Source: Capnocytophaga leadbetteri | GTDB taxonomy: Bacteria > Bacteroidota > Bacteroidia > Flavobacteriales > Flavobacteriaceae | DNA length: 64,000 nucleotides | Direction: 5' to 3' (one strand) | Assembly (NCBI RefSeq): GCF_938018165.1 | Contig: NZ_CALIIH010000010.1 | The notes under the pieces: model-generated | Told to the model about the DNA's origin: nothing | Database searches by the model: none | What the model saw: the letters and a program-made list of their open reading frames with translations, nothing else | Program-made: the position numbers and the translations under genes | Shown: positions 2,482-14,420 of the stretch, one piece after another | Position numbering within the stretch: the first letter of the stretch is position 1 | Layout of the letters: each line of letters opens with the position of its first letter

Positions 2482-2573
2482 CTGTGAGAGAAATGAGAAG
2501 GCTGAGAAGAATGGGAAGACTGGGAGGATTGAGAGGATTGTGAAGGCTGGGAAGAATGAGAAGGCTGGGAGGA
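2482..2573. repeat. Tandem array of about nine 9-bp purine-rich units (tgagaaggc / tgagaagaa / tgggaagac / tgggaggat / tgagaggat / tgtgaaggc / tgggaagaa / tgagaaggc / tgggaggag). Consensus TGRGARGRN.
   Basis: Read directly in the divergent intergenic region between the KS-like gene (-) and the ABC-F gene (+). The purine-rich strand matches the ABC-F coding strand. Confidence 0.8.
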
Positions 2574-2612
2574 GTTTGTTGTTTCAACATAATTTAAGAT
2601 AAAAATAATATA

Positions 2613-4475
2613 ATGAATTTATTATCAGTAGAAAATATATCTAAGGCTTTTGGGGAACGAGTTATACTCGAAAATATTTCTTTTGGTATCAATAAAGACC
2701 AAAAAATTGCCTTTATTGCTAAAAATGGCACTGGAAAGACGACTCTTCTGAATATTATGGCAGGGAAAGACTTGCCCGATAGCGGTCAGGTGGTGTTTAG
2801 GAAAGGAATACATATCGGATTTTTGTCGCAAAATCCGTATTTTGATGAAGAACTAACCGTAGAAGAGACTATTTTTGCTGCTGATAATCCTATTTTGCGT
2901 CTTATTCAAGCATATGAGCACGCTCTGGAGCACCCTGAGAACGAGGTAGCATACCAAAAGGCTTTTGAACAAATGGAGCTACACAACGCTTGGGACTTTG
3001 AGACTCAATATAAACAAATTCTCTTTAGGCTGAAATTAGACAATCTTAGTCTGAAAGTGAAGAACCTATCAGGCGGACAGAAAAAACGCCTCGCTTTGGC
3101 TAATGTGCTTATCAGCAAGCCTGACTTGCTTATTTTAGACGAGCCTACGAACCACTTAGACCTTGAGATGATAGAGTGGCTAGAACAGTATTTTGCCAAA
3201 GAAAATTTGACGCTCTTTATCGTTACTCACGACCGCTATTTCTTGGAGCGTGTGTGCAACGAAATATTAGAACTTGACGGAGGTGAGTTGTTCAGCTATA
3301 AGGGTAATTATTCTTATTTCTTGGAAAAGAAGGAACAGCGATTAGCACAAGAACAGGCTTCGGTAGAAAAGGCTAAGAACCTATACGTGAAAGAATTAGA
3401 CTGGATGCGCCGCCAACCTAAAGCACGAACAACCAAATCGAAATCGCGGATTGACGATTTTTACAAGATAAAAGAAGCAGCGCACAAGCGACGCAAGGAA
3501 CACACGGTGCAGCTGGAAATCAATATGGAGCGATTGGGTAGCAAAACGGTAGAATTTCACAACGTATGCAAGGCATTTGATAAGCTAACGATACTCGATA
3601 AATTCAGTTACAACTTCCTCAGAGGGGAACGGGTGGGTATCATAGGTAAAAACGGCACCGGTAAATCTACTTTTTTGAACTTACTAACTGGGGCTCTCCC
3701 CCCTGATAGTGGCAAGATAATAGTAGGTGACACTATCAAATTCGGCTATTATACGCAGGAAGGCATAGAGGTATTGCAAGGACAAAAAGTAATAGAGGTA
3801 ATACAAAAATACGGCGATTACATACCGCTACTGAAAGGGCGTACCCTATCGGCAGGACAACTATTGGAGCGTTTTCTCTTCGACCGCAAAAAGCAATACG
3901 ACTATGTGGAAAAACTCAGTGGTGGGGAGCTTAAACGCTTGTATCTCTGCACTGTACTTATACAAAATCCGAACTTTCTGATATTAGATGAGCCTACTAA
4001 TGACCTTGATATTGTAACGCTAAACGTGTTAGAAGATTTCTTATTAGACTACCCTGGGTGCTTGGTGGTAGTATCGCACGACCGCTATTTTATGGATAAG
4101 ATAGTAGACCACCTTTTCGTATTCAGAGGGCAAGGCGAAGTGGAGGATTTCCCTGGTAACTATACCGACTACCGCGTGTATGAAGAGAGCACTCCGCCAG
4201 CAGATGATGCTCCTAAAAAAGAGGCTACCAAAAATACTTGGCGCAAAGATGCTAATAAAGGTCTTTCATTCAACGAACAAAAGGAATACAACAGGTTAGA
4301 GAAGGAAATAGCGCAATTGGAAGAAAAAAAGACAGCTATAGAAGCTGCCTTTGCTGAGGGAAATCTTACTAATGATGAGATACAAAGTCAATCTGTTGCT
4401 CTACAAGAGACCCTTGTAGCCTTAGAGGAAAAGACTGAACGATGGTTTGAGCTAACAGAACGATTTGACAATTAG
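2613..4475 (+). CDS. ABC-F family ATPase (tandem ABC domains, Uup/EttA-like)
   Basis: There are two Walker A motifs (GKNGTGKTT, GKNGTGKST) and two LSGG signatures (LSGGQKKRL, LSGGELKRL). The C-terminal coiled coil and 620-aa length fit ABC-F proteins. Confidence 0.9.
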   Translation: MNLLSVENISKAFGERVILENISFGINKDQKIAFIAKNGTGKTTLLNIMAGKDLPDSGQVVFRKGIHIGFLSQNPYFDEELTVEETIFAADNPILRLIQAYEHALEHPENEVAYQKAFEQMELHNAWDFETQYKQILFRLKLDNLSLKVKNLSGGQKKRLALANVLISKPDLLILDEPTNHLDLEMIEWLEQYFAKENLTLFIVTHDRYFLERVCNEILELDGGELFSYKGNYSYFLEKKEQRLAQEQASVEKAKNLYVKELDWMRRQPKARTTKSKSRIDDFYKIKEAAHKRRKEHTVQLEINMERLGSKTVEFHNVCKAFDKLTILDKFSYNFLRGERVGIIGKNGTGKSTFLNLLTGALPPDSGKIIVGDTIKFGYYTQEGIEVLQGQKVIEVIQKYGDYIPLLKGRTLSAGQLLERFLFDRKKQYDYVEKLSGGELKRLYLCTVLIQNPNFLILDEPTNDLDIVTLNVLEDFLLDYPGCLVVVSHDRYFMDKIVDHLFVFRGQGEVEDFPGNYTDYRVYEESTPPADDAPKKEATKNTWRKDANKGLSFNEQKEYNRLEKEIAQLEEKKTAIEAAFAEGNLTNDEIQSQSVALQETLVALEEKTERWFELTERFDN

Positions 4476-4562
4476 GCGATTAGACAATTTGCCAATTAGA
4501 CGATTTGGCGATTTGATAATTGGCTCATTGACAAATTGACAAATCGACAAATCAACAAATTA
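4462..4562. repeat. Cluster of degenerate 9-bp mini-repeats of the 'TTGACAAAT / TTAGACGAT / TTGGCGATT' type in both orientations, lying between convergent genes
   Basis: gacaatttg ccaattaga cgatttggc gatttgata attggctca ttgacaaat tgacaaatc gacaaatca acaaattag. Units on opposite strands can pair, giving an imperfect hairpin. Confidence 0.7.
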
Positions 4563-5678
4563 GATGGATTTTCGGTAGGAGCGCCACCAACGTTCGGGGA
4601 TAGTACCTCGGATGGCCTCTTCGTAGTCTTGAGGTAAGCAAGGGATAAGTCCTGATGGGACGTGGTTTTGAGGCCCTGAGTACTTATCGCTACCAGGTTT
4701 CATCCACCAACGTTCAGTCTGTGTGCTTTTGAAGAACTCTATCTGTACATCCTCAATAGGCACAATATATTTAGTATAATTTTCGTCATTAATCACCGGT
4801 AACTCTTTGATACGGAAGTTGAAGCCCTCATAAAAATACCAAACCATTTCGGCCATCAGCTGGTTAGCCAAATCGGTATTAGGCACATTGAAAATGCCTG
4901 TTACTTGCACATTGCTACTGATACCGGCATAGCGCGTAATGGCACAGATTTCGCGGTTAGAAAAACCATTTACATTGCCCGGTGCATTCATATCTTTAGC
5001 TTGTACGCTGGTCATATCGATACTTACGATATCAGCATCGCGCATAGCAGGCTCTATACACTTCAGATCATTGACAACATTGCCCAAACGATAGGCTTCG
5101 AAGCACATCTTCTCAAGCAAATCGAGTTCTTCTTGGGCTACATAATAAGATTGATACCCTAAATTAGTAAAGTCGAGAAGATTGACAGGCGGCTCAGAAA
5201 TCAGTCGGCTCATATAAGAACTTTCGATAAAAAGCTCTTCCTCATTTCCAAAATCGAACTTAGCATCGACACTTACAAGATTTACCATTTGCTCGAGGCT
5301 ATCAAAAGCACGATAAAGCGAATAGGTAAACTGCTGCTCCCCCCCTATTACTAAAGGAAGGACACCTTTTTTGACCAATTCGGCTACAATTTCGCGAATA
5401 GCAAAATGCGTATCTTCGTCTGTTTCGCCCGCAGGAAGATTGCCTAAATCGGCAATGCTGAAGTACCAATTGCCTACGAAAAGAGAGTAAAGATGTCGGC
5501 GAAAATTACTAAAAGATTGACGGTTTTTCTCGACACAGAAGAAAGCGATTTTGACATCGCTAAGGTCGGGTAACCCTATGGAGTACAGGTGTTTTTGTAT
5601 CTGAAAGCCCACTTGCTGGGGCTTGTAATCATCTAAGGTAAAAGATGCTTCGACAGGTTGTAAATATGATAATGACAT
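4560..5678 (-). CDS. Arginase / formiminoglutamase (ureohydrolase) family protein
   Basis: 372 aa. The 'VIGGEQQ..' block sits where the GGDHS-like motif would be, and there are multiple Asp-rich metal-binding-like segments (SVDAKFDF, SIDMTS). A -7 box 'TATCTTTG' (reverse complement of 5704-5711) lies upstream. Family assignment is by recall and is moderate. Confidence 0.5.
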   Translation of the reverse strand: MSLSYLQPVEASFTLDDYKPQQVGFQIQKHLYSIGLPDLSDVKIAFFCVEKNRQSFSNFRRHLYSLFVGNWYFSIADLGNLPAGETDEDTHFAIREIVAELVKKGVLPLVIGGEQQFTYSLYRAFDSLEQMVNLVSVDAKFDFGNEEELFIESSYMSRLISEPPVNLLDFTNLGYQSYYVAQEELDLLEKMCFEAYRLGNVVNDLKCIEPAMRDADIVSIDMTSVQAKDMNAPGNVNGFSNREICAITRYAGISSNVQVTGIFNVPNTDLANQLMAEMVWYFYEGFNFRIKELPVINDENYTKYIVPIEDVQIEFFKSTQTERWWMKPGSDKYSGPQNHVPSGLIPCLPQDYEEAIRGTIPERWWRSYRKSI

Positions 5679-5755
5679 TGGTTATATATTAGGTAATAAT
5701 GCGCAAAGATAGTAAATTATTATCAATTATTAATTGTTAATTGCTAATAGTTTTG

Positions 5756-5763
5756 TACCTTTG
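5756..5763 (+). promoter_or_regulatory. Bacteroidota sigma-A -7 box (TACCTTTG), with TTG elements about 20 nt upstream
   Basis: 'ttgtacctttgc' matches the TAnnTTTG consensus. It lies 24 nt upstream of ATG 5787. The ORF-track ATG 5766 would sit inside the promoter. Confidence 0.5.
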
Positions 5764-5786
5764 CAGTGAAAAACAAGAGAGAAACT

Positions 5787-6044
5787 ATGTCATACACTAT
5801 CACCATAAACCCAGACTGTAGTCCGTTAGCTTTTTCAGAGTTAAAGGAAACACTTGATTATAAGGAAATAGGCAAAGCTAAAGAACCTAAAAAGGTAGCT
5901 TTGTCGGCTGACATTTGGGACGAAGAAGATTGGGGAATCCCCCCCGATGATATGGAGTTCTTAATGGGAATATCAAGAAAAATTAATAAAAATATAGCAA
6001 AACGCGTAGCTGAAGATTTTAACCTACCTTATAAAACTGAATAA
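5787..6044 (+). CDS. Small hypothetical protein and putative antitoxin partner of the downstream PIN protein. The start is corrected to ATG 5787 (MSYTIT...).
   Basis: 85 aa. Its stop lies 3 nt before the PIN gene start and both genes are on the same strand. It has no recognisable RHH/AbrB/Phd motif. Confidence 0.4.
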   Translation: MSYTITINPDCSPLAFSELKETLDYKEIGKAKEPKKVALSADIWDEEDWGIPPDDMEFLMGISRKINKNIAKRVAEDFNLPYKTE

Positions 6045-6046
6045 TT

Positions 6047-6514
6047 ATGATTATTATAGCCGACAGCAATATTTTTATGAATGCTCTTATTACCCCTGAC
6101 AGCTTAGTAGCTACCATCTTATCTGAAAGAAAGAGAATACAATACATAGTACCTGATTACCTCATAAAAGAAGTAACAGAGCATATACCAGATATTATAG
6201 GACGCACCAAAGAGCCTAAGACCCAACGACAGCTGTTAGCCGATTTTAAGAAACTATTGGAGGGGATTACTATTGTAAATATAAAAGAAGATGTAAAAAA
6301 AGCTAATATACAAAAAGCTGAGGATATAACCAGAGATGTTGATCCTTATGACTATCCTTTTATAGCCTTACACCTTGAGAAAGGGCATAAAATATGGACA
6401 TTGGATAAAGCGTTAAAAAAAGGACTTACAGAAAAAGGATGTGGACACTTCTTTGTTAGACAGGTAGAACTGATTTCAAGACTTTATAAAAAAGAGAATA
6501 AACCACAAAAATGA
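6047..6514 (+). CDS. PIN-domain protein (VapC-like putative ribonuclease toxin)
   Basis: The N-terminal 'MIIIADSNIF' supplies the conserved Asp at position 6. The remaining acidic positions are E (IKEVTEH), D (DVDPYD) and D (WTLDKAL), with spacing as in PIN domains. Its stop overlaps the downstream gene start (ATGA). Confidence 0.6.
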   Translation: MIIIADSNIFMNALITPDSLVATILSERKRIQYIVPDYLIKEVTEHIPDIIGRTKEPKTQRQLLADFKKLLEGITIVNIKEDVKKANIQKAEDITRDVDPYDYPFIALHLEKGHKIWTLDKALKKGLTEKGCGHFFVRQVELISRLYKKENKPQK

Positions 6515-7449
6515 AAATACTTCACATAGACAAAAATCACCCTTTGATGCTGGCACAGCTTGCGGCTCAAGGGTTTGAAAACCACGAGGACTATACCAGC
6601 ACTAAGGCTGAAATAGAAGCTAAAATAGCTGATTATGATGGAATTATTATCCGCAGCAGGTTCCCTATTGACAAGCTATTTTTAGACAAGGCTACTCGCC
6701 TAAAATTTATAGGAAGAGTGGGGGCCGGTCTTGAGAATATAGATGTGGCTTATGCTGAAAGCAAGGGTATCTGCCTCATAGCTGCCCCTGAAGGCAACCG
6801 CAATGCAGTAGGTGAGCACGCTTTAGGAATGCTGTTATCGCTACTAAACAAGTTTAAAAAAGCGAATAACGAAATCAAGAACGGCAAATGGTTACGCGAG
6901 GAAAATCGCGGTTGGGAGTTAGACGGCAAAACTGTAGGCATTATAGGCTACGGTAATATGGGCAAGAGCTTTGCTAAAAAGCTACGTGGCTTTGACTGCC
7001 AAGTAATCTGCTATGATATACTGCCTAACAAAGGTGATGAAAACGCTCGGCAAGTAACCTTAGTAGATTTTTTCCGTCAGGCAGATGTGGTAAGTCTGCA
7101 CACTCCACAAACACCCCAAACGACAGGAATGATTAATGAAGCGTTTATCAACAGTTTTGCCAAAAGTTTTTGGTTTTTGAACACAGCGCGCGGCAAGAGT
7201 GTCGTTACCGATGATTTGGTGCGCGCCCTACAAAGCGGCAAAGTATTAGGGGCTGGATTAGATGTGCTCGAGTACGAGAAAGCCTCATTTGAAGATTTTT
7301 TTAGCGATAAGCAGATGCCCGAAGCGTTTAAATATCTTTTGGAGGCTGACAATGTAATCCTAACCCCCCATATAGCTGGTTGGACACTTGAAAGCAAGGA
7401 GAAACTGGCTCAGACGATTGTGGATAAGATAATTAATTTTAGTCGTTAG
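6511..7449 (+). CDS. D-isomer-specific 2-hydroxyacid dehydrogenase family protein (NAD-binding)
   Basis: It has a GxGxxG Rossmann motif (GIIGYGNMG) and a catalytic-domain layout like the PGDH/GyaR family. The C-terminal 'LTPHIAGWT' supplies the His. Confidence 0.8.
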   Translation: MKILHIDKNHPLMLAQLAAQGFENHEDYTSTKAEIEAKIADYDGIIIRSRFPIDKLFLDKATRLKFIGRVGAGLENIDVAYAESKGICLIAAPEGNRNAVGEHALGMLLSLLNKFKKANNEIKNGKWLREENRGWELDGKTVGIIGYGNMGKSFAKKLRGFDCQVICYDILPNKGDENARQVTLVDFFRQADVVSLHTPQTPQTTGMINEAFINSFAKSFWFLNTARGKSVVTDDLVRALQSGKVLGAGLDVLEYEKASFEDFFSDKQMPEAFKYLLEADNVILTPHIAGWTLESKEKLAQTIVDKIINFSR

Positions 7450-7490
7450 AAAGCGACTCTATATAGGAAAATTGAGATTTGATATATCAT

Positions 7491-8309
7491 ATGAAAAAGA
7501 ATTATTTATTGATTGGGGTAGCGGCTCTGTTATTAGGGGGCTGTTGTGCTACCAAAACCTCTACCGCAGCGCAGGCCCCCAAGGGCGAAAGCGCGCTCAT
7601 CGCTAACGGTAAGCTATGGTCTTCTTACTTTCAGCAAAACGCTGCTGAATACGAGGCTCTTTGTCTGCAAGCCTTTAATGTAGCTCAGCTGCGTTTAGAC
7701 GAAGCTCTTGCTAAAAAAGGTGATAAACCGCTGGCTATCGTTACTGATATTGACGAGACTTTCTTAGACAACTCGCCTTTTGAAGCCTATTGTGCTAAAA
7801 AGGGTATTAGCTACTCGCAAGAGGCGTGGGAAGAATGGACGGTATTAGGTGATGCTAAACCGCTGGCAGGGGCGTTGGATTTCTTTAAATACGCTGACAG
7901 CAAAGGGGTTGCTATCTTCTACGTAACCAATCGTTTGGAGAAAGAGCGCGAAGGTACTGCCAAGAACCTACGCAAGTATAACTTTCCTTTCCCTTCTGAT
8001 AGTAGACTGATACTCCGCACCGCTGAGAAAAGCAAAGAGAACCGTCGCCTACAGATAGCTAAGGATTACGACATCGTGCTACTAATGGGGGATAACCTTT
8101 CTGACTTTGCTAAAGACTTTGACAGTCGCACCCCTGAAGGTCGCTCAGAAGCCGTACATAACAACCGCAATGAGTTTGGTAAGCGCTTTATTATCCTACC
8201 TAACTACTCTTACGGCGACTGGGAAGGCGCTGCCTATGGCAATAAATACTCTATCCCTGCTGAACAAAAAGAATTGATTATTAAGAATAAGACAAAAGCG
8301 TTTAAATAA
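7491..8309 (+). CDS. Lipoprotein e(P4)/OlpA-type class C acid phosphatase (5'-nucleotidase), HAD superfamily
   Basis: It has the DIDET(FLDN) HAD motif I, YVTNR, and a GDNLSDF motif. The lipoprotein signal is LLGGCC. I prefer ATG 7491 over the upstream TTG 7479. Confidence 0.75.
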   Translation: MKKNYLLIGVAALLLGGCCATKTSTAAQAPKGESALIANGKLWSSYFQQNAAEYEALCLQAFNVAQLRLDEALAKKGDKPLAIVTDIDETFLDNSPFEAYCAKKGISYSQEAWEEWTVLGDAKPLAGALDFFKYADSKGVAIFYVTNRLEKEREGTAKNLRKYNFPFPSDSRLILRTAEKSKENRRLQIAKDYDIVLLMGDNLSDFAKDFDSRTPEGRSEAVHNNRNEFGKRFIILPNYSYGDWEGAAYGNKYSIPAEQKELIIKNKTKAFK

Positions 8310-8350
8310 TTAGCAAATTGGTAAATTAGCAAATTAGCAAATGACAAATC
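8309..8350. repeat. Mini-repeat cluster 'ttagcaaattggtaaattagcaaattagcaaatgacaaatc'
   Basis: It belongs to the same TTGACAAAT/TTAGCAAAT family as 4462-4562. It lies directly 3' of the e(P4) gene. Confidence 0.7.
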
Positions 8351-8378
8351 TTGCGAGAGTGAGGTTTGTCATTTTTTT
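8341..8378 (+). terminator. Rho-independent terminator-like hairpin (stem atgacaaa / tttgtcat, 16-nt loop) followed by TTTTTTT
   Basis: atgacaaatcttgcgagagtgaggtttgtcattttttt, read directly. The stem is AT-rich, so this is a weaker terminator. Confidence 0.45.
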
Positions 8379-8386
8379 ACTTGGTA

Positions 8387-8401
8387 GGTCATAGTTTGTC
8401 C
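8387..8401. repeat. 15-bp exact direct repeat GGTCATAGTTTGTCC (left copy)
   Basis: It is identical to 13087-13101. The two copies bracket the phosphoesterase pseudogene and the two DUF262 genes. Confidence 0.8.
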
Positions 8402-8442
8402 GCTACTTTTATGACCTTTACTGCAATAAAAAATTGATAAAA

Positions 8443-8799
8443 TGAAAATACAATATTGTTCGGATTTACAGCTAGTTTTTTTTGAAGAAAGAAGTGAAAA
8501 AAGCGGCAAAAGCTAAGAAAGCTGGCGAGATTGAGCGTATAGTAGTCGCTACCCATTACGTCCCCACCAAAGAGCATTACCCTGAAATATACTTAGACAG
8601 TCCGCTAAATGAAGCTTTTGCGCAAGACCTGACCGATTTTATCGTCTCAAACCCTATATATTATTGGATTTATGGGCATCACCATTTTAACCAGCCTGAC
8701 TTTAAGGTAGGTAACACCCAGCTACTCACCAACCAATTAGGCTACGTAATGCGAGATGAACACGAAGGGTTTGATTGGGAACAACGGGTGGAGGTGTAA
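8443..8799 (+). pseudogene. Calcineurin-like metallophosphoesterase remnant with an internal deletion and frameshift
   Basis: ATG 8443 gives MKIQYCSDLQLVFF (compare MKIxHISDLHL of metallophosphoesterases) and then hits a stop. In the next frame, opened by a TTG, the C-terminal about 100 aa continues and carries a GHHH (GHxH) motif. The middle roughly 150 aa with the GDxxDRG/GNHE motifs is missing. Confidence 0.5.
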
Positions 8800-8874
8800 A
8801 AAAATATAAAAAAAGTTAATGTTGTATTAAAAAAAGTTGTATATTTGTAGCGAAAAATAAAAAAGATATATTTT

Positions 8875-10716
8875 ATGGAAGAAAATAGTATAAAAATGAA
8901 ATCTCTAATAGAGCTTAGAGATGGACGTATCTTCTATGTTCCAGCCTACCAAAGAGGCTACAGATGGAATACGGAACAAGTAGAAGATTTGCTTAATGAC
9001 CTTTATGACTTCGCCTCAGGGAAAAATGAAAATCAGTTTTATTGTTTACAACCTGTTATTGTAAAGCGAATTGTTAGAGATTCTCCTAAATGGAAAGAAA
9101 TTTATGGGGCAAATCCTACGCTCCATGCAGAGGCACCTATTTATGAGGTAGTGGATGGGCAACAAAGGCTTACAACCCTTTACATCTTATTGCAATATAT
9201 CATTAACCATACAACAGATGAAGAAGAAAAAGAAGAGGAACAAAATGCTATATACAATCTCATCTATGAAACAAGAAGAGATTTATCTGGTTATCTTCAA
9301 ACGATAGGAAAGCAATCTAATTTTAGTAATATTGATGAAAAACATGCTTTCAATGCTTATCAAAGTATAGAAAAATGGATTAAAAATAAAAGAACTTTTT
9401 CATTAAAATCTTCCAAAATACGAGAAAAATTAGCGGAATTTCTTTATCAAGATAAGGATACTAAAGAGGATTGTGGTTCCCTACAAGTAGTCTGGTATGA
9501 AATCAATGAAGAAAAGGATGTTATACGTGAGTTTCTAACTATCAACAATGGAAAAATCCAGCTTACAGAAGCAGAACTTATCAAAGCACTTTTCCTACAA
9601 AAGTGCCATTTGGGAGATTACCATTTGGAAACTACGCAAGGAAATATTGCACTTGAGTGGGAACGCATTGAAAATACCTTGCATCAAGATGATTTTTGGT
9701 ATTTTCTGAGCAATGAAAACAAGATTCCTTCCAATCGTATAGAACTACTTCTACGCCTAAATAAAGGTATCTTTGAAACAGATAAAAACAAACTCTTCCG
9801 TTCTTACTATGAGATATTTTATGAAAAAGAAAGTCTTACAGAAAAAGTAAAGGGGGTATGGAAAAATATGATTGCCATTTTTCGTACGTTCGAAGATTGG
9901 TATATCGACCCTATAAAATACAATATGATAGGTTTCCTAACTCACGCAGGTGTTAAGCTCCAAGATATTTATAATGAATATAAAAGCTCCGATGATCAAA
10001 AAGACTTTATAGATAGGCTAAAAAACTTAGTACGAAAAATTATCGGGGAGTATAAAGGAGAGAAAATTGAAAAACTTAGCTATAAAAAAGACCGTAATAC
10101 CATCAGAAAAATACTCCTTTTGATGAATATTCATACGCTAAATACCCAATTGGAAGAATTACGAAAAAAAAATAACAATATAACGAATAGTTCTTCTTAC
10201 AAATTCCCTTTTGATATATTTATCAGTCAAAGTTGGGATGTAGAGCATATTGATTCTGCTACTTCCAATCGATTAAAAGACCATAATGAACAAAAATTAT
10301 GGATAGAAAGTTGTAAAGACTTTATTGAAAAAAAGAAATGGGAGGAAGAAATAATACCTTTATATGAAAAATGGGAAAATGGAGAAGAAAAAGATTGGGA
10401 AAAATGCAAAGAAGCTATTATAACATTGGTAGGTGAAAATCCAGAAGAAGGTGAGGAAGACAAAAATGGAATAAATAATCTCACTCTATTGGATGCTGAA
10501 ACAAATCGCAGTTACGGAAATGCTATTTTTCCTCGTAAACGAAAAGAAATACTTGAAGCCATTCGCAATGGTAAATATGTACCTCAATGTACTCAAATGA
10601 TATTCTATAAAAATTTTAGCAACAGCTCTCTACAAAACACACTTTATTGGAGTAAAGAGAGCAAAGAAGCCTACTTAAACTATATAATTGAAATACTTGA
10701 TTCTTATGGAAAATAA
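8875..10716 (+). CDS. DUF262 (ParB-like nuclease/NTPase) + DUF1524 (His-Me finger/HNH-like) fusion protein, GmrSD-family type IV restriction-like
   Basis: The N-terminal DUF262 motifs are 'YVPAYQRGYRW' and 'VVDGQQRLTTLYIL'. The C-terminal DUF1524-like motifs are 'WDVEHIDSATSN' and 'NNLTLLDAETNRSYGNAIFPRKRK'. Codon usage is very AT-rich and K/E-rich. Confidence 0.75.
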   Translation: MEENSIKMKSLIELRDGRIFYVPAYQRGYRWNTEQVEDLLNDLYDFASGKNENQFYCLQPVIVKRIVRDSPKWKEIYGANPTLHAEAPIYEVVDGQQRLTTLYILLQYIINHTTDEEEKEEEQNAIYNLIYETRRDLSGYLQTIGKQSNFSNIDEKHAFNAYQSIEKWIKNKRTFSLKSSKIREKLAEFLYQDKDTKEDCGSLQVVWYEINEEKDVIREFLTINNGKIQLTEAELIKALFLQKCHLGDYHLETTQGNIALEWERIENTLHQDDFWYFLSNENKIPSNRIELLLRLNKGIFETDKNKLFRSYYEIFYEKESLTEKVKGVWKNMIAIFRTFEDWYIDPIKYNMIGFLTHAGVKLQDIYNEYKSSDDQKDFIDRLKNLVRKIIGEYKGEKIEKLSYKKDRNTIRKILLLMNIHTLNTQLEELRKKNNNITNSSSYKFPFDIFISQSWDVEHIDSATSNRLKDHNEQKLWIESCKDFIEKKKWEEEIIPLYEKWENGEEKDWEKCKEAIITLVGENPEEGEEDKNGINNLTLLDAETNRSYGNAIFPRKRKEILEAIRNGKYVPQCTQMIFYKNFSNSSLQNTLYWSKESKEAYLNYIIEILDSYGK

Positions 10717-13024
10717 TTTATATACCCTAGAAAAACTCCTTACAGAAGAATTTGAAAACCACACCCTTAAACAGATTGTAATCCCTAAGATACAACGCTC
10801 TTATGCACAAGGGCGGAAGGAAGAATTACAAGTACGCATGAGTATTCTTGAAGAACTCTTCAGAACCTTAAAGGAAGAACAAGATATAGAACTCAACTTT
10901 ATTTATGGCTCTTTAAAGGAAAACGGAACATACGAATTACTTGATGGGCAACAACGTATTACCACCCTATTCTTGTTATACCTTTATGCTTATTTACAAG
11001 AAAAAGGATCATTGCCTGATTGGTTCAAAAACTGTTTGACCTACGAAACGCGACATTCCTCTCGTGACTTTATTGAAGAACTATGCGAGCTAAATCAGCT
11101 TACAAATGAGGAATATACCTTACCTAGTACGTATATCAAAAACCAAAAATGGTATAATAATGCCTTCCGCTTAGACCCTTCTATAGAAGCAATGCTTATC
11201 ATGCTTGATACGATTGATTGGTATTATAAAGAAACAGGAGAGCGGATAGCTGATAAGTTGAAACATATTCGTTTTTATGCTTTGAATCTTAATAATTTCA
11301 ATCTTACGGAAGAACTATATATAAAAATGAATGCAAGAGGATTACCTCTTACTCCTTTTGAAAATTTCAAAGCCGATTTAGTAGGGTATTACAAACCTAA
11401 TAAAGATGTAGCTGATAAAGAGTTCAAATCGTGGTTAGACTTTGCCACTAAATTGGATACTGAATGGATTGACATTTTTTGGAATAAAGAAAGCTCTGAT
11501 AAAGATGTTGATAACCAATATTTCCGCTTTTTCTATCGTGTAGCAACAATTCTAACTATTATTTTTTCTAAAGAAAATTCTGATAGTTTTAATTTTTTCC
11601 GACAAGAAAGTGAAATTCAAACAGATGATAAAGCCCGTTATTTAGGATTTGGACATTACAAAGTGTTGTTTGATACTTTAGGAAAAGACAAAAGTAGAGA
11701 AATGCTAACGCTGTTGCTTGATACTTTCAAATCATACCCTACAATTTTTGAAGAGGCTAAAGCAGCTTGGGGAGAACAAATAACTCCTTTTGCTGATGTT
11801 AAAAACTATTCTCAAAAGAATGCCGTAGTTTTTGCAGGAATTGTCTTGTATATCCTTACTCAAAAAACTTCACCTAAGGAGAATACAGACTTTAAACATT
11901 GGATGCGTGTAGTGTGGAATACTGTTGAAAATACAGATATTAATGGGGTAGTTCCTCAAGTGGGTACTATTCGTGTTTTATACAATCTTATAAGTGAGAG
12001 TCAAGGAGACATTTATAACCATTTAGCACAACAGGAAAAAGGAGCTACCAATGCTATAGATGAAGAAATTCGAAAAGCAAAACTTATCGTACAAGATAAT
12101 AGGTTTGAAGAAGTGCTTCAAAAACAAGAAGGACACGAGTTCTTTAAAGGCTTTGCTGGGGTAATACTCTCTGAAGGAGTAAGCTATGAATGCCTTAAGA
12201 ATCGCGTAGAAAGAATAGCTCCTCTGTTTGATAAAACGGGTATAAGTCCCGAATATCGCAATGAAGAACATCTACTCATTAGAGCTTGTATAACAAGTTT
12301 TAGAGAAGATATAAATAAACTTACCAACAATATTTTTATTACAGAACGTGTTGAAGATGATTCTAGACTTAAAAAGTTTTTAAGAGAGAATATAGTTACG
12401 ACTTTCATTCAATCGATTCTAGATAAAGAAGAAGAGATTCTTAAACACCTACGTAATATCATTGAAAAGTTTAAACTTCCTGATGATTTATACAAACAAA
12501 ATTATGCTTATGAACGTCTTGTAAAAGAAGCTAAATTATTTGAGTGGATTAAAGATCACACTTACACTTACAATAATAAAGATGTTTATTTTAAATCAGG
12601 TTATTCAGCAGAGACTTGGACTTATTATTTACATTTCCCTGGAAGGAAATATGATTATTTGTATTTAAATAATAAACGTGGTAAAATAATACCTAAATTT
12701 AGAGAAAAGGGATATGATTTTAATGATACCAATGATGGCAATAATCAAAGAAAGGCTATTGAAAAGTACAATGATTGTTTTGGATATTGGCCAATAGAGT
12801 TAAGCAAAACTGTTAGTTTTTATAAAATCATTCTTAGTTTCAATATTGACAATAAATTAACCGTTTTCATTCCTGATTTACTCGTAGATGAAAATCTTCT
12901 CGCTTTATTTGACCAACCTAATTCTGAAAATAAAACCATTGTAAAAGTGTTAGACTTAGATAATGATGAAGTTACTATATTTTCTGCTATAGAAGAGATA
13001 GAAAATAAAGTTAACTCTTTATAA
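10688..13024 (+). CDS. DUF262 domain protein (paralog partner; no DUF1524/HNH motif found) with a roughly 500-aa uncharacterised C-terminal region
   Basis: Motifs 'VIPKIQRSYAQG' and 'LLDGQQRITTLFLL' are present. It overlaps the upstream gene by 29 nt on the same strand, which implies an operon. I found no EHI/NxxLLxxxxN motif. Confidence 0.7.
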   Translation: MKYLILMENNLYTLEKLLTEEFENHTLKQIVIPKIQRSYAQGRKEELQVRMSILEELFRTLKEEQDIELNFIYGSLKENGTYELLDGQQRITTLFLLYLYAYLQEKGSLPDWFKNCLTYETRHSSRDFIEELCELNQLTNEEYTLPSTYIKNQKWYNNAFRLDPSIEAMLIMLDTIDWYYKETGERIADKLKHIRFYALNLNNFNLTEELYIKMNARGLPLTPFENFKADLVGYYKPNKDVADKEFKSWLDFATKLDTEWIDIFWNKESSDKDVDNQYFRFFYRVATILTIIFSKENSDSFNFFRQESEIQTDDKARYLGFGHYKVLFDTLGKDKSREMLTLLLDTFKSYPTIFEEAKAAWGEQITPFADVKNYSQKNAVVFAGIVLYILTQKTSPKENTDFKHWMRVVWNTVENTDINGVVPQVGTIRVLYNLISESQGDIYNHLAQQEKGATNAIDEEIRKAKLIVQDNRFEEVLQKQEGHEFFKGFAGVILSEGVSYECLKNRVERIAPLFDKTGISPEYRNEEHLLIRACITSFREDINKLTNNIFITERVEDDSRLKKFLRENIVTTFIQSILDKEEEILKHLRNIIEKFKLPDDLYKQNYAYERLVKEAKLFEWIKDHTYTYNNKDVYFKSGYSAETWTYYLHFPGRKYDYLYLNNKRGKIIPKFREKGYDFNDTNDGNNQRKAIEKYNDCFGYWPIELSKTVSFYKIILSFNIDNKLTVFIPDLLVDENLLALFDQPNSENKTIVKVLDLDNDEVTIFSAIEEIENKVNSL

Positions 13025-13034
13025 TTCTACAAAA

Positions 13035-13068
13035 CCTCCCCCACTCCTAAAAAGTGGGGAGTTTTTTT
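13035..13068 (+). terminator. Rho-independent terminator (GC stem ctcccccact / agtgggga + TTTTTTT)
   Basis: aaacctcccccactcctaaaaagtggggagttttttt, immediately after the stop of the second DUF262 gene. Confidence 0.8.
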
Positions 13069-13086
13069 AAAGAAAAAAATATAGTC

Positions 13087-13101
13087 GGTCATAGTTTGTC
13101 C
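13087..13101. repeat. 15-bp exact direct repeat GGTCATAGTTTGTCC (right copy)
   Basis: Identical to 8387-8401. It is followed by the -7 box for the next gene. Confidence 0.8.
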
Positions 13102-13112
13102 ATTTTGTTTTG

Positions 13113-13120
13113 TATCTTTG
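13113..13120 (+). promoter_or_regulatory. -7 box TATCTTTG for the 13145 gene
   Basis: 'ttttgtatctttgcc' lies 25 nt upstream of the ATG. Confidence 0.5.
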
Positions 13121-13144
13121 CCGTGTAATTTTTAAAGTAATACA

Positions 13145-13435
13145 ATGAATCTTTACTTAGACGACCTCCGTACTACTCCTGAGGGGTTTGAGCGGGTGTA
13201 TAGTTACGAGGAATTTGTAGCTTATCTTCAGCATTATGGGTTGCCTGATTTTATCTCGTTTGACCACGATTTGGGCGAGGAGTTTTCGGGCTATGATTGT
13301 GCCAAATATTTGGTGGATTATTGTTTAGACCGTCAGTTGCCTTTACCCAAGTTTGTAGTGCACAGTCAAAACCCTGTAGGTAAGGCGAATATAGAACAAC
13401 TATTAGCAAATTTTAAAAAGAATATAGAATTTTAA
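13145..13435 (+). CDS. Standalone REC-fold (receiver-like) small protein. It resembles the 'cREC' cyclic-phosphate-processing receiver family.
   Basis: 96 aa. The REC catalytic-pocket pattern is preserved: 'YLDDLR' (DD), 'ISFDHDLG' (the Asp at the phospho-acceptor position), 'VHSQNP' (Ser/Thr) and 'GKANI' (Lys). It has no output domain. The cREC assignment is from memory of that family's description. Confidence 0.5.
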   Translation: MNLYLDDLRTTPEGFERVYSYEEFVAYLQHYGLPDFISFDHDLGEEFSGYDCAKYLVDYCLDRQLPLPKFVVHSQNPVGKANIEQLLANFKKNIEF

Positions 13436-13446
13436 TAAATAAAACT

Positions 13447-14355
13447 ATGGCTAAAAAAGAACAATTATTGCGATTAGTGCATATCGTAAAAGCTCTTGAA
13501 AAGGCTCCTGAAGGGGGACTTAGCTATCAGGAGCTATACGACTACCTAAAACAAAAACACGAGGATAAAGATTGTGAGAAGTTTAGCTTCTCAGAAAAAA
13601 CTTTTCAGCGGGATAGGCATCTGTTAGAAGATATTTTTATGATTTATATTGCGCCTAATGGTAAAGGGCGATGGGTGATTGAAGAAAGCGAACTAACAAA
13701 CCGGTATGCTATTTTTGACAACATTTTATTAGTAGATGCCTACCGTCGCACTAAAGAGATGCAAGAGGTGCTACTATTTGAACGACAAGAGAAAACACTA
13801 GGCTTAAACCATATTGAAGACATTATTGAGGCTATAGAAAAACATCGTACTGTGCGGTTTTTCTACACCAAATTTTGGGAAGGGGTTGCTTGCCAGCGTG
13901 AAATGGTGCCTTATGCCTTAAAGGAACACAATAGGCGTTGGTATCTGATTGCTGCTGAGCACAAAGAGCCTATGCAGTTTAAGGCTTTTGGCTTAGACCG
14001 TATTTCTCAATTGGAGGTTACAACTACTAAAGTACAACGCAAAAAAGTGAATATAGAAGCCCTTTTTAAAAATACTTATGGGGTAATGATTGATACGGAA
14101 ACACCTCCGCAAGAGGTTATTTTATCGTTTGACTACGAGCAGGGGCAGTATGTTAAAACCCTACCACTGCACCCCTCGCAAAAGCTATTAGAGGACAATG
14201 AGGATGAGGTGCGTATCAGCTTGCAGCTCGTTCCTACTTACAATTTTGTGATGGAGATATGTGCCCGCAGTCAGTATGTGAAAGTGCTCGCTCCTGCTAC
14301 ATTGGCAGAAGAGGTGAAAGAACATCTAAAAAAAGCATATGAACAGTATTTGTAA
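13447..14355 (+). CDS. WYL-domain transcriptional regulator (N-terminal wHTH + WYL, BrxR/CapW/PafBC-like)
   Basis: The N-terminal HTH-like segment is 'LLRLVHIVKALEKAPEGGLSYQELYDYL'. The central segment 'NRRWYLIAAEH' contains the WYL tripeptide. The gene starts 12 nt after the small REC-like gene. Confidence 0.7.
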   Translation: MAKKEQLLRLVHIVKALEKAPEGGLSYQELYDYLKQKHEDKDCEKFSFSEKTFQRDRHLLEDIFMIYIAPNGKGRWVIEESELTNRYAIFDNILLVDAYRRTKEMQEVLLFERQEKTLGLNHIEDIIEAIEKHRTVRFFYTKFWEGVACQREMVPYALKEHNRRWYLIAAEHKEPMQFKAFGLDRISQLEVTTTKVQRKKVNIEALFKNTYGVMIDTETPPQEVILSFDYEQGQYVKTLPLHPSQKLLEDNEDEVRISLQLVPTYNFVMEICARSQYVKVLAPATLAEEVKEHLKKAYEQYL

Positions 14356-14356
14356 A

Positions 14357-14388
14357 ATTTAGTCATTTGTAATTTGTCATTTGTAATT
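14357..14388. repeat. Mini-repeat cluster 'ttagtcatttgtaatttgtcatttgtaatt' (reverse orientation of TGACAAAT units)
   Basis: Two 'tcatttgtaat' units lie directly 3' of the WYL gene. Confidence 0.7.
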
Positions 14389-14394
14389 ATTTTG

Positions 14395-14402
14395 TATCTT
14401 TG
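14395..14402 (+). promoter_or_regulatory. -7 box TATCTTTG for ubiE
   Basis: 'ttttgtatctttgc' lies 19 nt upstream of ATG 14421. The track start 14400 is a TTG inside this promoter. Confidence 0.5.
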
Positions 14403-14420
14403 CAAAAAATTACGCATCGT

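Follow-up and report, generated by a model that had tools for sequence, protein, structure and literature searches.

What could a 96-residue receiver-like protein and a WYL-domain regulator be doing together beside a pair of restriction-like genes? The question is raised by a two-gene locus at positions 13,145-14,355 of a 64,000-nucleotide stretch (hereafter, the window) of Capnocytophaga leadbetteri contig NZ_CALIIH010000010.1 (assembly GCF_938018165.1). A sequence-only reading had taken the first gene for a stand-alone cyclic-phosphate processing receiver (cREC) and the second for a winged helix-turn-helix (wHTH) WYL regulator, and had proposed that the pair either controls the adjacent DUF262 nuclease genes through a nucleotide-derived signal or makes up a signalling or abortive-infection module of its own. 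Both open reading frames (ORFs) were found at the coordinates it gave, and profile matches and models establish what domains the two proteins contain and how they fold. The two genes form their own transcription unit, with a terminator upstream and a promoter of its own built on a palindromic box; the DUF262 cassette before them is exchanged between conserved borders; and cREC has a calcineurin-like phosphoesterase as a linked partner, in some genomes as a fusion partner (Table 1). On balance we lean towards a resident cREC-WYL operon at a hotspot for anti-phage cassettes, in which the WYL factor would control a regulon marked by the box and cREC would act as a phosphoesterase.

The small protein aligns with positions 1-87 of the 88 in the Pfam hidden Markov model cREC_REC, PF20274 (E=4.1e-28, 98.3 bits for a cut-off of 27), which, and not Response_reg, is its best Pfam match. 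Proteins 93% identical to it carry the NCBI label 'cyclic-phosphate processing receiver domain-containing protein', and NCBIfam gave no match for cREC, the WYL protein or the DUF262 pair. Its nearest homologues are from Capnocytophaga, the DNA of the locus being 99% identical to that of C. leadbetteri DSM 22902, and the closest relative (locus L001) encodes cREC and WYL proteins that are 99% and 96% identical, respectively. The family comprises 3,967 cluster representatives (50% identity clustering, E<=0.001), mostly of 95-190 residues, and phage cRECs from 180 records, the Nudix-cREC fusion of Serratia phage BF among them, show 41-45% identity to the protein. Considering (i) the full-length Pfam match, (ii) the size of the family and (iii) the phage homologues, it is a true cREC and not a fragment of a response regulator, in agreement with the sequence-only reading. 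A sequence search of the PDB with cREC returned nothing meaningful, the top match being R2D2 at E=0.25.

The predicted structure of cREC shows a receiver-like Rossmannoid fold of four strands and three helices, in which the chain ends after the helix behind the Ser-bearing strand, with neither beta5 nor alpha5. Conservation, counted across 71 non-identical relatives down to ~37% identity, reaches at least 90% at D6, D7, R9, P34, D40, H41, D42, L43, S74, N76, P77, G79 and I83; the invariant H41, flanked by the two third-strand Asps, is an additional His. It had been claimed that every position of the receiver catalytic pocket is kept; this holds for four of the five, whereas the canonical lysine has no counterpart, because the beta5-alpha5 loop is absent from the model, and K54 and K80, conserved at 85% and 72%, lie on helices. 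Thus, the protein departs from canonical response regulators in having no (beta-alpha)5 fold, no nearby kinase and no output domain, these last two features being as previously described: no histidine kinase (HATPase or HisKA) was found among the Pfam-scanned genes at 2.6-23.6 kb, a scan that left small ORFs outside.

These features agree with the defining account of the family (Iyer et al. 2021, PMC7824862), in which cREC, a divergent form of the receiver domain that never occurs together with histidine kinases, has WYL as one of its listed partners, and which presents the cREC gene neighbourhoods and contextual network in Figure 6 (legend). A later paper (Iyer et al. 2022, PMC9503650) restates that account, places calcineurin-like phosphoesterases among the partners in phage clusters and notes that the family 'remain experimentally uncharacterized', cyclic-phosphate hydrolysis being predicted only. 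The earlier statement that no described system has this composition must therefore be withdrawn: the cREC-WYL partnership is of a known kind, already published as a prediction, as is its biochemistry. The 2021 paper makes no mention of DUF262, GmrSD or ParB, and neither paper mentions a recurrent link to GmrSD-like pairs or a common promoter box. What is new here is the separate cREC-WYL transcription unit, the promoter box with its putative regulon, the cassette-swap structure, the fusion to a phosphoesterase and the recurrent neighbourhood of GmrSD pairs.

The second protein matches Pfam WYL (PF13280, E=7.8e-13) and WCX (PF25583, E=1.6e-8), contains the motif RRWYLIA and is recognised by the PADLOC model for CRISPR-associated WYL proteins at 2e-30. 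Its N-terminal wHTH is not recognised by Pfam, and is seen in the AlphaFold model (predicted local distance difference test, pLDDT, 80.7) as helices 3-19, 27-39 and 50-64 followed by a beta-hairpin at 68-78. Upon searching the PDB with a profile built from 20 relatives derived from the loci, PafBC (4e-18), DriD (~1e-15 to 1e-16), BrxR and CapW were matched over residues 109-296. Foldseek with the whole protein retrieved the same four (PafBC-RNA polymerase 3.8e-12, DriD with single-stranded DNA (ssDNA) and DNA 4e-12, BrxR 6e-8 and CapW 6e-7), its alignments to DriD, PafBC and BrxR spanning 330-350 columns. Since the model shows the wHTH and the Foldseek matches are full-length, the wHTH-WYL-WCX architecture is confirmed, and with it the earlier assignment as a wHTH and WYL regulator. 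Factors of this architecture characterised so far (CapW, DriD and PafBC) all sense ssDNA, and the nucleotide-derived signal proposed before is an older prediction that finds no support here.

Close linkage of the two genes was also as described, with 11 nt between them on the same strand. The terminator that precedes them is conserved in four other loci (L001, L002, L008 and L123), and the cREC start codon begins 24 nt after the -7 box TATCTTTG. The -7 consensus of Bacteroidota is TAnnTTTG. Upstream of this element lies the 15-mer GGTCATAGTTTGTCC, an imperfect palindrome of the form GGnCAnA-n-TnTGnCC for which the 64 kb contain, at up to three mismatches, just two sites, 8387 and 13087. The box common to both places came to light when the two upstream regions were compared visually, a comparison that was then extended across loci; a generic search for inverted repeats upstream of 8875 and 13145 returned only terminators and AT-rich chance pairs, and a sigma-70 promoter scan (22 matches for 23.9 expected) was uninformative and models the wrong type of promoter for Bacteroidota. 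Of the two places where the sequence-only reading had advised looking for a conserved operator, the region upstream of 13145 holds a conserved palindrome, while the DUF262 promoter upstream of 8875, with its -7 box TATATTTG at 8840-8847, has no copy of it.

In 8 further loci of Capnocytophaga, with cREC proteins of only 78-97% identity, an exact box again stands at -44 of cREC. Copies with up to two mismatches also precede c23 paralogues, MPE (metallophosphoesterase) and WYL genes, and the small genes c143 and c170 ahead of WYL in other lineages, all of them co-oriented with the gene downstream and all but two intergenic. Together they define the promoter consensus GGTCaTAGTTTGTCC-N11-TAtCTTTGC, in which the length of the spacer is conserved and its sequence is not; the pattern for whole-genome scanning is GGTCRTAGTTTGTCC-N11-TANNTTTG. 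In a metagenome scan that allowed 10-12 nt, all 20 promoter-context copies had the 11-nt spacer, the raw 15-mer scan having yielded mostly chance matches from unrelated environments, with the promoter-geometry filter passed by 16 of 120 loci. Looser variants with the same geometry were found in Bergeyella, Chryseobacterium, Myroides, Flavobacterium and Gelidibacter loci, and stand ahead of WYL, cREC, AAA+, RNase T-like, SLOG and c19 genes. Under the same filters, forty scrambled motifs gave no match, compared with 23 co-oriented intergenic copies of the real one in loci of Capnocytophaga and, outside that genus, 9 variants. Whatever the arrangement (cREC-WYL, c143-WYL, WYL-cREC or WYL alone), the WYL gene lies inside a box-driven operon, and the WYL factor is the sole DNA-binding protein recurrently encoded in these loci.

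The upstream neighbours are, as the sequence-only reading had it, a DUF262 pair (GmrSD_N in Pfam) directly before cREC-WYL. In DUF262_A, Pfam detects GmrSD_N at E=1.3e-31 and GmrSD_C only at E=0.064, an EHI...N...N motif being nonetheless visible, and the protein matches the PADLOC Orf5, HEC-06 and SspE models. The GC content of this cargo is 0.30-0.33, compared with 0.38-0.44 for the flanks and for cREC-WYL. Homology to C. leadbetteri L001 covers only 8478-8887 and 13021-14409, the slot between holding there a PD-(D/E)XK fragment and a 168-aa ORF in place of the DUF262 pair, while metagenome contig L123, 94% identical to window positions 2492-8473, loses homology at 8812 and resumes it at 13039, its slot being occupied by a different pair that joins GmrSD_N+DUF7834 with GmrSD_N+GmrSD_C. 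PD-(D/E)XK genes (PADLOC candidate PDC-S26) fill the slot in L001, L006, L007 and L085. The DUF262 pair is a separate, recently acquired TgvAB-like cassette and one interchangeable cargo among others. In line with the earlier note, the cREC-WYL pair is not core-syntenic either, its flanks differing among Capnocytophaga species.

The island is flanked by housekeeping genes, with no integrase, tRNA or phage genes seen, and an origin as prophage or integrative element was rejected on these grounds. Neither a riboswitch nor a tRNA integration site is present, since scanning the island and its flanks for Rfam families and tRNAs gave no match. At the left edge (8308-8386) lies a hairpin-terminator with AATTAGCAAATT direct repeats, within which a TTTGTCATTT hairpin at 8338-8375 is related to the 14-nt repeat that follows the WYL gene (Table 1). 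Patterns of the TTTGTCATTT(G) type occur 8 times in the window for 2.0 expected and are present at both outer edges of the island, and possibly they are recombination borders or island-edge sequences.

The second box of the window, at 8387, precedes the remains of an MPE gene. That it is a pseudogene was shown by tblastn with intact 270-aa orthologues (L001, L007 and L008) and by blastn with L123, in which MPE is intact at 296 aa; an intact relative in L016 matches Pfam Metallophos, and the tail of the pseudogene accounts for the 105-aa ORF that precedes the DUF262 pair. Where the window has GACCTTTA, the syntenic L123 with its intact MPE gene has TAccTTTG. Read-through from this box into the DUF262 pair was considered and rejected, since two disabling substitutions separate its -7 box from that of L123 and the gene that it would drive is a deletion pseudogene. 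Natural MPE-cREC fusions of 309 aa are found in metagenome-assembled genomes (MAGs) of Flavobacteriales (L044:7350-8279 and L048:7350-8279, partial in L043 and L050), their MPE part corresponding to the PADLOC defence candidate PDC-S10 (E=1.7e-93), and stand-alone MPE genes flank cREC in many loci. Proteins of 189-211 aa in L040, L045, L047 and L051, at one time taken for long cREC paralogues, are really stand-alone MPEs that had been clustered with cREC via the L044 and L048 fusions.

To place these neighbours in a wider frame, cREC loci were dereplicated at 90% identity to 41 lineages. A WYL gene stands next to cREC in 7 of them, within four genes in 12 and within +/-8 kb in 19; for DUF262 genes the counts are 3, 9 and 9, and for MPE 4 (two of them fusions), 8 and 9. 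The arrangement A-B-[P]-cREC (A and B being DUF262_A and DUF262_B) is found in the window and in L089, while in L145 [P]-cREC comes first and is separated by 39 nt from A-B, a pair 69% and 77% identical to that of the window; in Diaphorobacter cREC likewise lies upstream of A-B, and L009 and L014 read cREC-MPE-A-B-c143-WYL. Myroides (L040:3417-11466) and Sphingobacterium (L045:4102-11459), which belong to different families, have in common the cluster DUF262_A-DUF262_B-cREC-IetA-like AAA+-short MPE-WYL, preceded in the Myroides copy by a DEDDh/RNase T-like exonuclease gene, which suggests transfer of the complete module. In L056-L059, L062 and L077 (MAGs of Chitinophaga, Akkermansia and Crocinitomicaceae) cREC is convergent with genes for an IetA-like AAA+ protein, a SprT-like protease and DUF262. 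The recurrence of DUF262 with cREC exceeds what is expected for a random neighbour and also fits a common hotspot; a functional coupling of the two may exist at the family level.

The operon-at-hotspot layout is seen in Capnocytophaga and in related Flavobacteriales, and the regulatory logic and enzyme activity that we infer for it are as follows. The WYL factor would bind the palindrome, which occupies the position of the -33 element, and would control its own operon together with a small regulon. Most likely it would work in the manner of DriD and PafBC, with ssDNA or another nucleic-acid by-product of infection or damage acting on the WYL domain to turn transcription on; at DriD-activated promoters, as seen by cryo-electron microscopy (PMC13004042), the target site overlaps with -35 and keeps a constant distance to -10. 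The Asp/His/Ser pocket of cREC would be the phosphoesterase site, and cREC and MPE, where intact, would have as substrates nucleic-acid ends bearing a cyclic phosphate or a phosphate, or nucleotide-derived molecules that arise during the conflict. This reaction would either repair damage or remove the inducing signal, in a negative feedback. Since its MPE partner is dead, cREC would act alone in this strain. The other box-driven genes, such as those of a locus with DUF6140 and dynamin-like GTPases, suggest a defence or stress regulon.

Several observations weigh against this mechanism. At least three HTH types are represented among the WYL proteins adjoining cREC, with only 38-55% identity across the HTH region and differences in the recognition-helix region (SEKTFQRDR versus SNRTIRRDF), over an invariant box, and the regulator seems to have been exchanged, or to evolve much faster than cREC and the promoter box, among Capnocytophaga species; in L005 and L012, where box-driven genes occur, no WYL gene lies within 8 kb. 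For these two reasons, binding of the box by the WYL factor is a candidate assignment that we hold to be only slightly favoured. In 22 of the 41 lineages no WYL gene lies within +/-8 kb, and hence cREC needs no linked WYL, these frequencies being approximate because loci were recruited by similarity to the window cREC and ORFs were called crudely. The literature search found no experimental paper on cREC later than Iyer et al. 2022. With the box constant and the HTH regions diverging (down to 38% identity), another transcription factor, or a specialised sigma factor, could read it, cREC and WYL being then regulon members and the WYL targets lying elsewhere; box-driven genes away from any WYL gene, the DUF6140 locus included, fit this idea. 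We regard it as rather doubtful, considering that the WYL factor is the only recurrent DNA-binding protein and always lies in a box-driven operon, that box variants stand ahead of WYL genes in other genera too, and that a -7 box of the standard housekeeping type speaks against an alternative sigma factor. The sign of the control is a further point, since BrxR and CapW, repressors that control defence systems, have the same architecture and give structural matches at E ~1e-7, and CapW leaves double-stranded DNA upon binding ssDNA. A repressor of this type would occlude the -33 region from the palindrome until ssDNA derepressed the operon and the regulon, and the TTTG within the box could be an upstream promoter element, in which case a bound dimer would block the promoter. 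Repression is a minor but real possibility; a strict 11-nt spacing with an unconserved spacer sequence is what has been reported for DriD activator sites and is not needed by a repressor operator, and DriD and PafBC outscore BrxR and CapW in Foldseek.

Less probable is the proposal that cREC and WYL are a dedicated control module of the adjacent DUF262 pair, with WYL as the sensor of a nucleotide signal, or else an abortive-infection module complete in itself. The DUF262 pairs within four genes of cREC come from distant taxa and in different orientations, as with the orthologous cassette of L145, the string of L009 and L014 and the conserved cluster RNaseT-A-B-cREC-AAA-MPE-WYL of Myroides and Sphingobacterium, and islands regulated by BrxR can include a GmrSD enzyme, BrxU. 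In the window, however, the terminator separates the two units, the DUF262 genes have their own boxless promoter, the sole box upstream of them belongs to a decayed one, the closest genome retains cREC-WYL with a different cargo in a slot that hosts unrelated cassettes, and the cREC-WYL pair has no toxin-like component. The case for specific regulation of the neighbouring genes is thus weak here, and we judge it unlikely. Single-domain receivers such as CheY work through protein-protein contact, a precedent for a cREC that is no enzyme at all but an adaptor, phosphorylated by a small molecule or binding a ligand, that modulates WYL; its acidic pocket is kept and it is co-translated with WYL from one operon. 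This is very improbable, given that more than half of the cREC lineages have no nearby WYL, that cREC is fused to enzymes (Nudix in phages, MPE in bacteria) and not to signalling domains, and that it has an invariant His between its Asps and neither a beta5 Lys nor an alpha4-beta5-alpha5 signalling face. The operon-and-regulon mechanism could also be extended, tentatively and with clearly lower confidence, by taking cREC, WYL and MPE as the core of a Flavobacteriales-wide, DriD/PafBC-like stress regulon with interchangeable defence cassettes joined through one box. There, ssDNA or damaged ends from phage attack or DNA damage would switch on the cassettes (two-protein GmrSD pairs, PD-(D/E)XK nucleases, AAA+/SprT pairs and dynamin-like GTPases), with cREC resetting or repairing the signal; in a stronger form, the GmrSD-like pairs would depend functionally on cREC.

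The annotation gain is modest, as existing Pfam and NCBI names are already right for both genes. To our knowledge, the regulation of defence genes in Bacteroidota is poorly understood, and the conserved promoter motif makes that of cREC-WYL testable. For cREC, a large family in bacteria and many large phages, the locus offers a compact, culturable setting, with a two-gene operon, a sharply defined candidate operator, natural variants with and without the MPE partner, and natural swaps of the neighbouring defence cassette. If the WYL factor does read the box, Capnocytophaga and its relatives would have a defined inducible defence or damage regulon; were the wider stress regulon true, it would be the first so defined in Bacteroidota and would give the first functional handle on cREC.

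Table 1. Features of the cREC-WYL island in the window, from left to right.
Feature	Position	Strand	Description	Evidence
Relic box	8387..8401	+	GGTCATAGTTTGTCC, exact, upstream of the MPE pseudogene; -7 box GACCTTTA (8413-8420) degraded	
MPE pseudogene	8442..8796	+	Calcineurin-like; codons 1-13 (8442-8480), ~455-bp deletion with frameshift, C-terminal 106 codons	
Cargo cassette	8813..13038	+	Swappable, low-GC, with two DUF262 genes and its own -7 box	
DUF262_A	8875..10716	+	GmrSD_N (DGQQR) and C-terminal His-Me finger-like region (EHID...NLTLLD...N); GmrSD-family, type IV restriction-like	
DUF262_B	10688..13024	+	GmrSD_N (DGQQR); no domain assigned to C-terminal region	Pfam, E=5.5e-22
Intrinsic terminator	13039..13069	+	GC-rich hairpin and T run; ends the DUF262 unit, in the conserved right flank	Terminator scan, inverted repeat
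cREC-WYL promoter	13087..13120	+	Box GGTCATAGTTTGTCC 13087-13101, 11-nt spacer, -7 box TATCTTTG 13113-13120	
cREC	13145..13435	+	Stand-alone, 96 aa, predicted phosphoesterase	ORF; Pfam cREC_REC PF20274
WYL factor	13447..14355	+	wHTH-WYL-WCX transcription factor, 302 aa	Pfam WYL and WCX; PDB profile matches; model and Foldseek
Tandem 14-nt repeat	14359..14386	+	TTAGTCATTTGTAA / TTTGTCATTTGTAA, between the WYL stop codon and the ubiE promoter	Repeat finder

Some further observations were made along the way. In four loci (L091:5451-10316, L155, L159 and L166) the box drives a separate set of genes, which comprises DUF6140, a 70-aa ORF and two bacterial dynamin-like GTPases; neither cREC nor WYL is found near it. 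The c23 proteins (~420-460 aa) are encoded in arrays (L005:6011-10189, L012, L001:3219, L006:3237 and L008:169), several members having the box ahead; c23 (~446 aa, tandem paralogues), c7, c19, c126, c143 and c156 gave no Pfam or PADLOC match. Relative to the window, cREC in L003, L006 and L007 is ~90% identical and the WYL protein down to 44% (38% in its HTH region). In oral Flavobacteriaceae MAGs (L017-L038) cREC, with no WYL within 8 kb, borders a variable slot between conserved housekeeping genes that is filled either by a Sel1-repeat protein or by a PD-(D/E)XK-like gene in company with c35 or with c7-c37. About 2 kb to the left of the island, at window positions 5766-6514, a 92-aa ORF followed by a PIN_2 protein (155 aa) resembles a toxin-antitoxin pair.

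Among known systems, the locus resembles other members of the cREC family in its full-length profile match, receiver-like fold, two Asp motifs and absence of a histidine kinase, in its WYL neighbour, as in the defining paper, and in the MPE link of its relatives, which parallels the calcineurin-like partner in phage clusters. It differs in being chromosomal, in a bacterial defence hotspot, instead of in phage RNA-repair or NAD/ADP-ribose clusters, and genes for an RNA ligase, sirtuin, Nudix, 2H or KptA protein are absent near this cREC, the whole window being free of RNA ligase and NAD-processing genes. The DUF262 pair is likened to TgvAB of Vibrio cholerae VPI-2 (VC1766 and VC1767; bioRxiv 10.1101/2024.04.04.588119), a characterised type IV restriction system of the GmrSD family with two proteins, in which one DUF262 protein with a His-Me nuclease and one DUF262-only protein are encoded by overlapping genes, the comparison being one of described architecture and not of sequences; the gene order is reversed relative to the pair here, and TgvAB is embedded in a type I restriction-modification operon, whereas here the neighbour is cREC-WYL.

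With regard to the regulator, the ssDNA-sensing activators DriD (Caulobacter) and PafBC (Actinobacteria) have the three-domain architecture in common with it and are its best structural matches (Foldseek E ~4e-12), and the candidate site lies, as in DriD promoters, across the position of the upstream promoter element, with a constant spacing to the downstream one. On the contrary, their sequence identity to the WYL protein is only 14-20%, the promoter here is of the Bacteroidota type, and the putative regulon resembles defence cassettes and not classical DNA-repair genes. BrxR and CapW (PMC9122601, PMC9122588, PMC11662680) likewise share the architecture, with significant structural matches, and reside in defence islands, which for BrxR can hold the GmrSD-family BrxU, but they are repressors that usually head the system they repress, whereas this factor is co-transcribed behind cREC, downstream of the cargo, and its promoter geometry fits an activator better. 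A more distant parallel may be drawn with the putative logic of the operon. The sensor regulator of the RNA-repair operon RtcR-RtcBA switches on end-processing enzymes in response to RNA ends with a cyclic phosphate; the analogy lies in a ligand-sensing one-component regulator coupled to enzymes predicted for the same class of nucleic-acid ends, and, there being no homology, RtcR-RtcBA differs by its CARF sensor in place of WYL, its sigma-54 activation and its RtcB ligase and RtcA cyclase.

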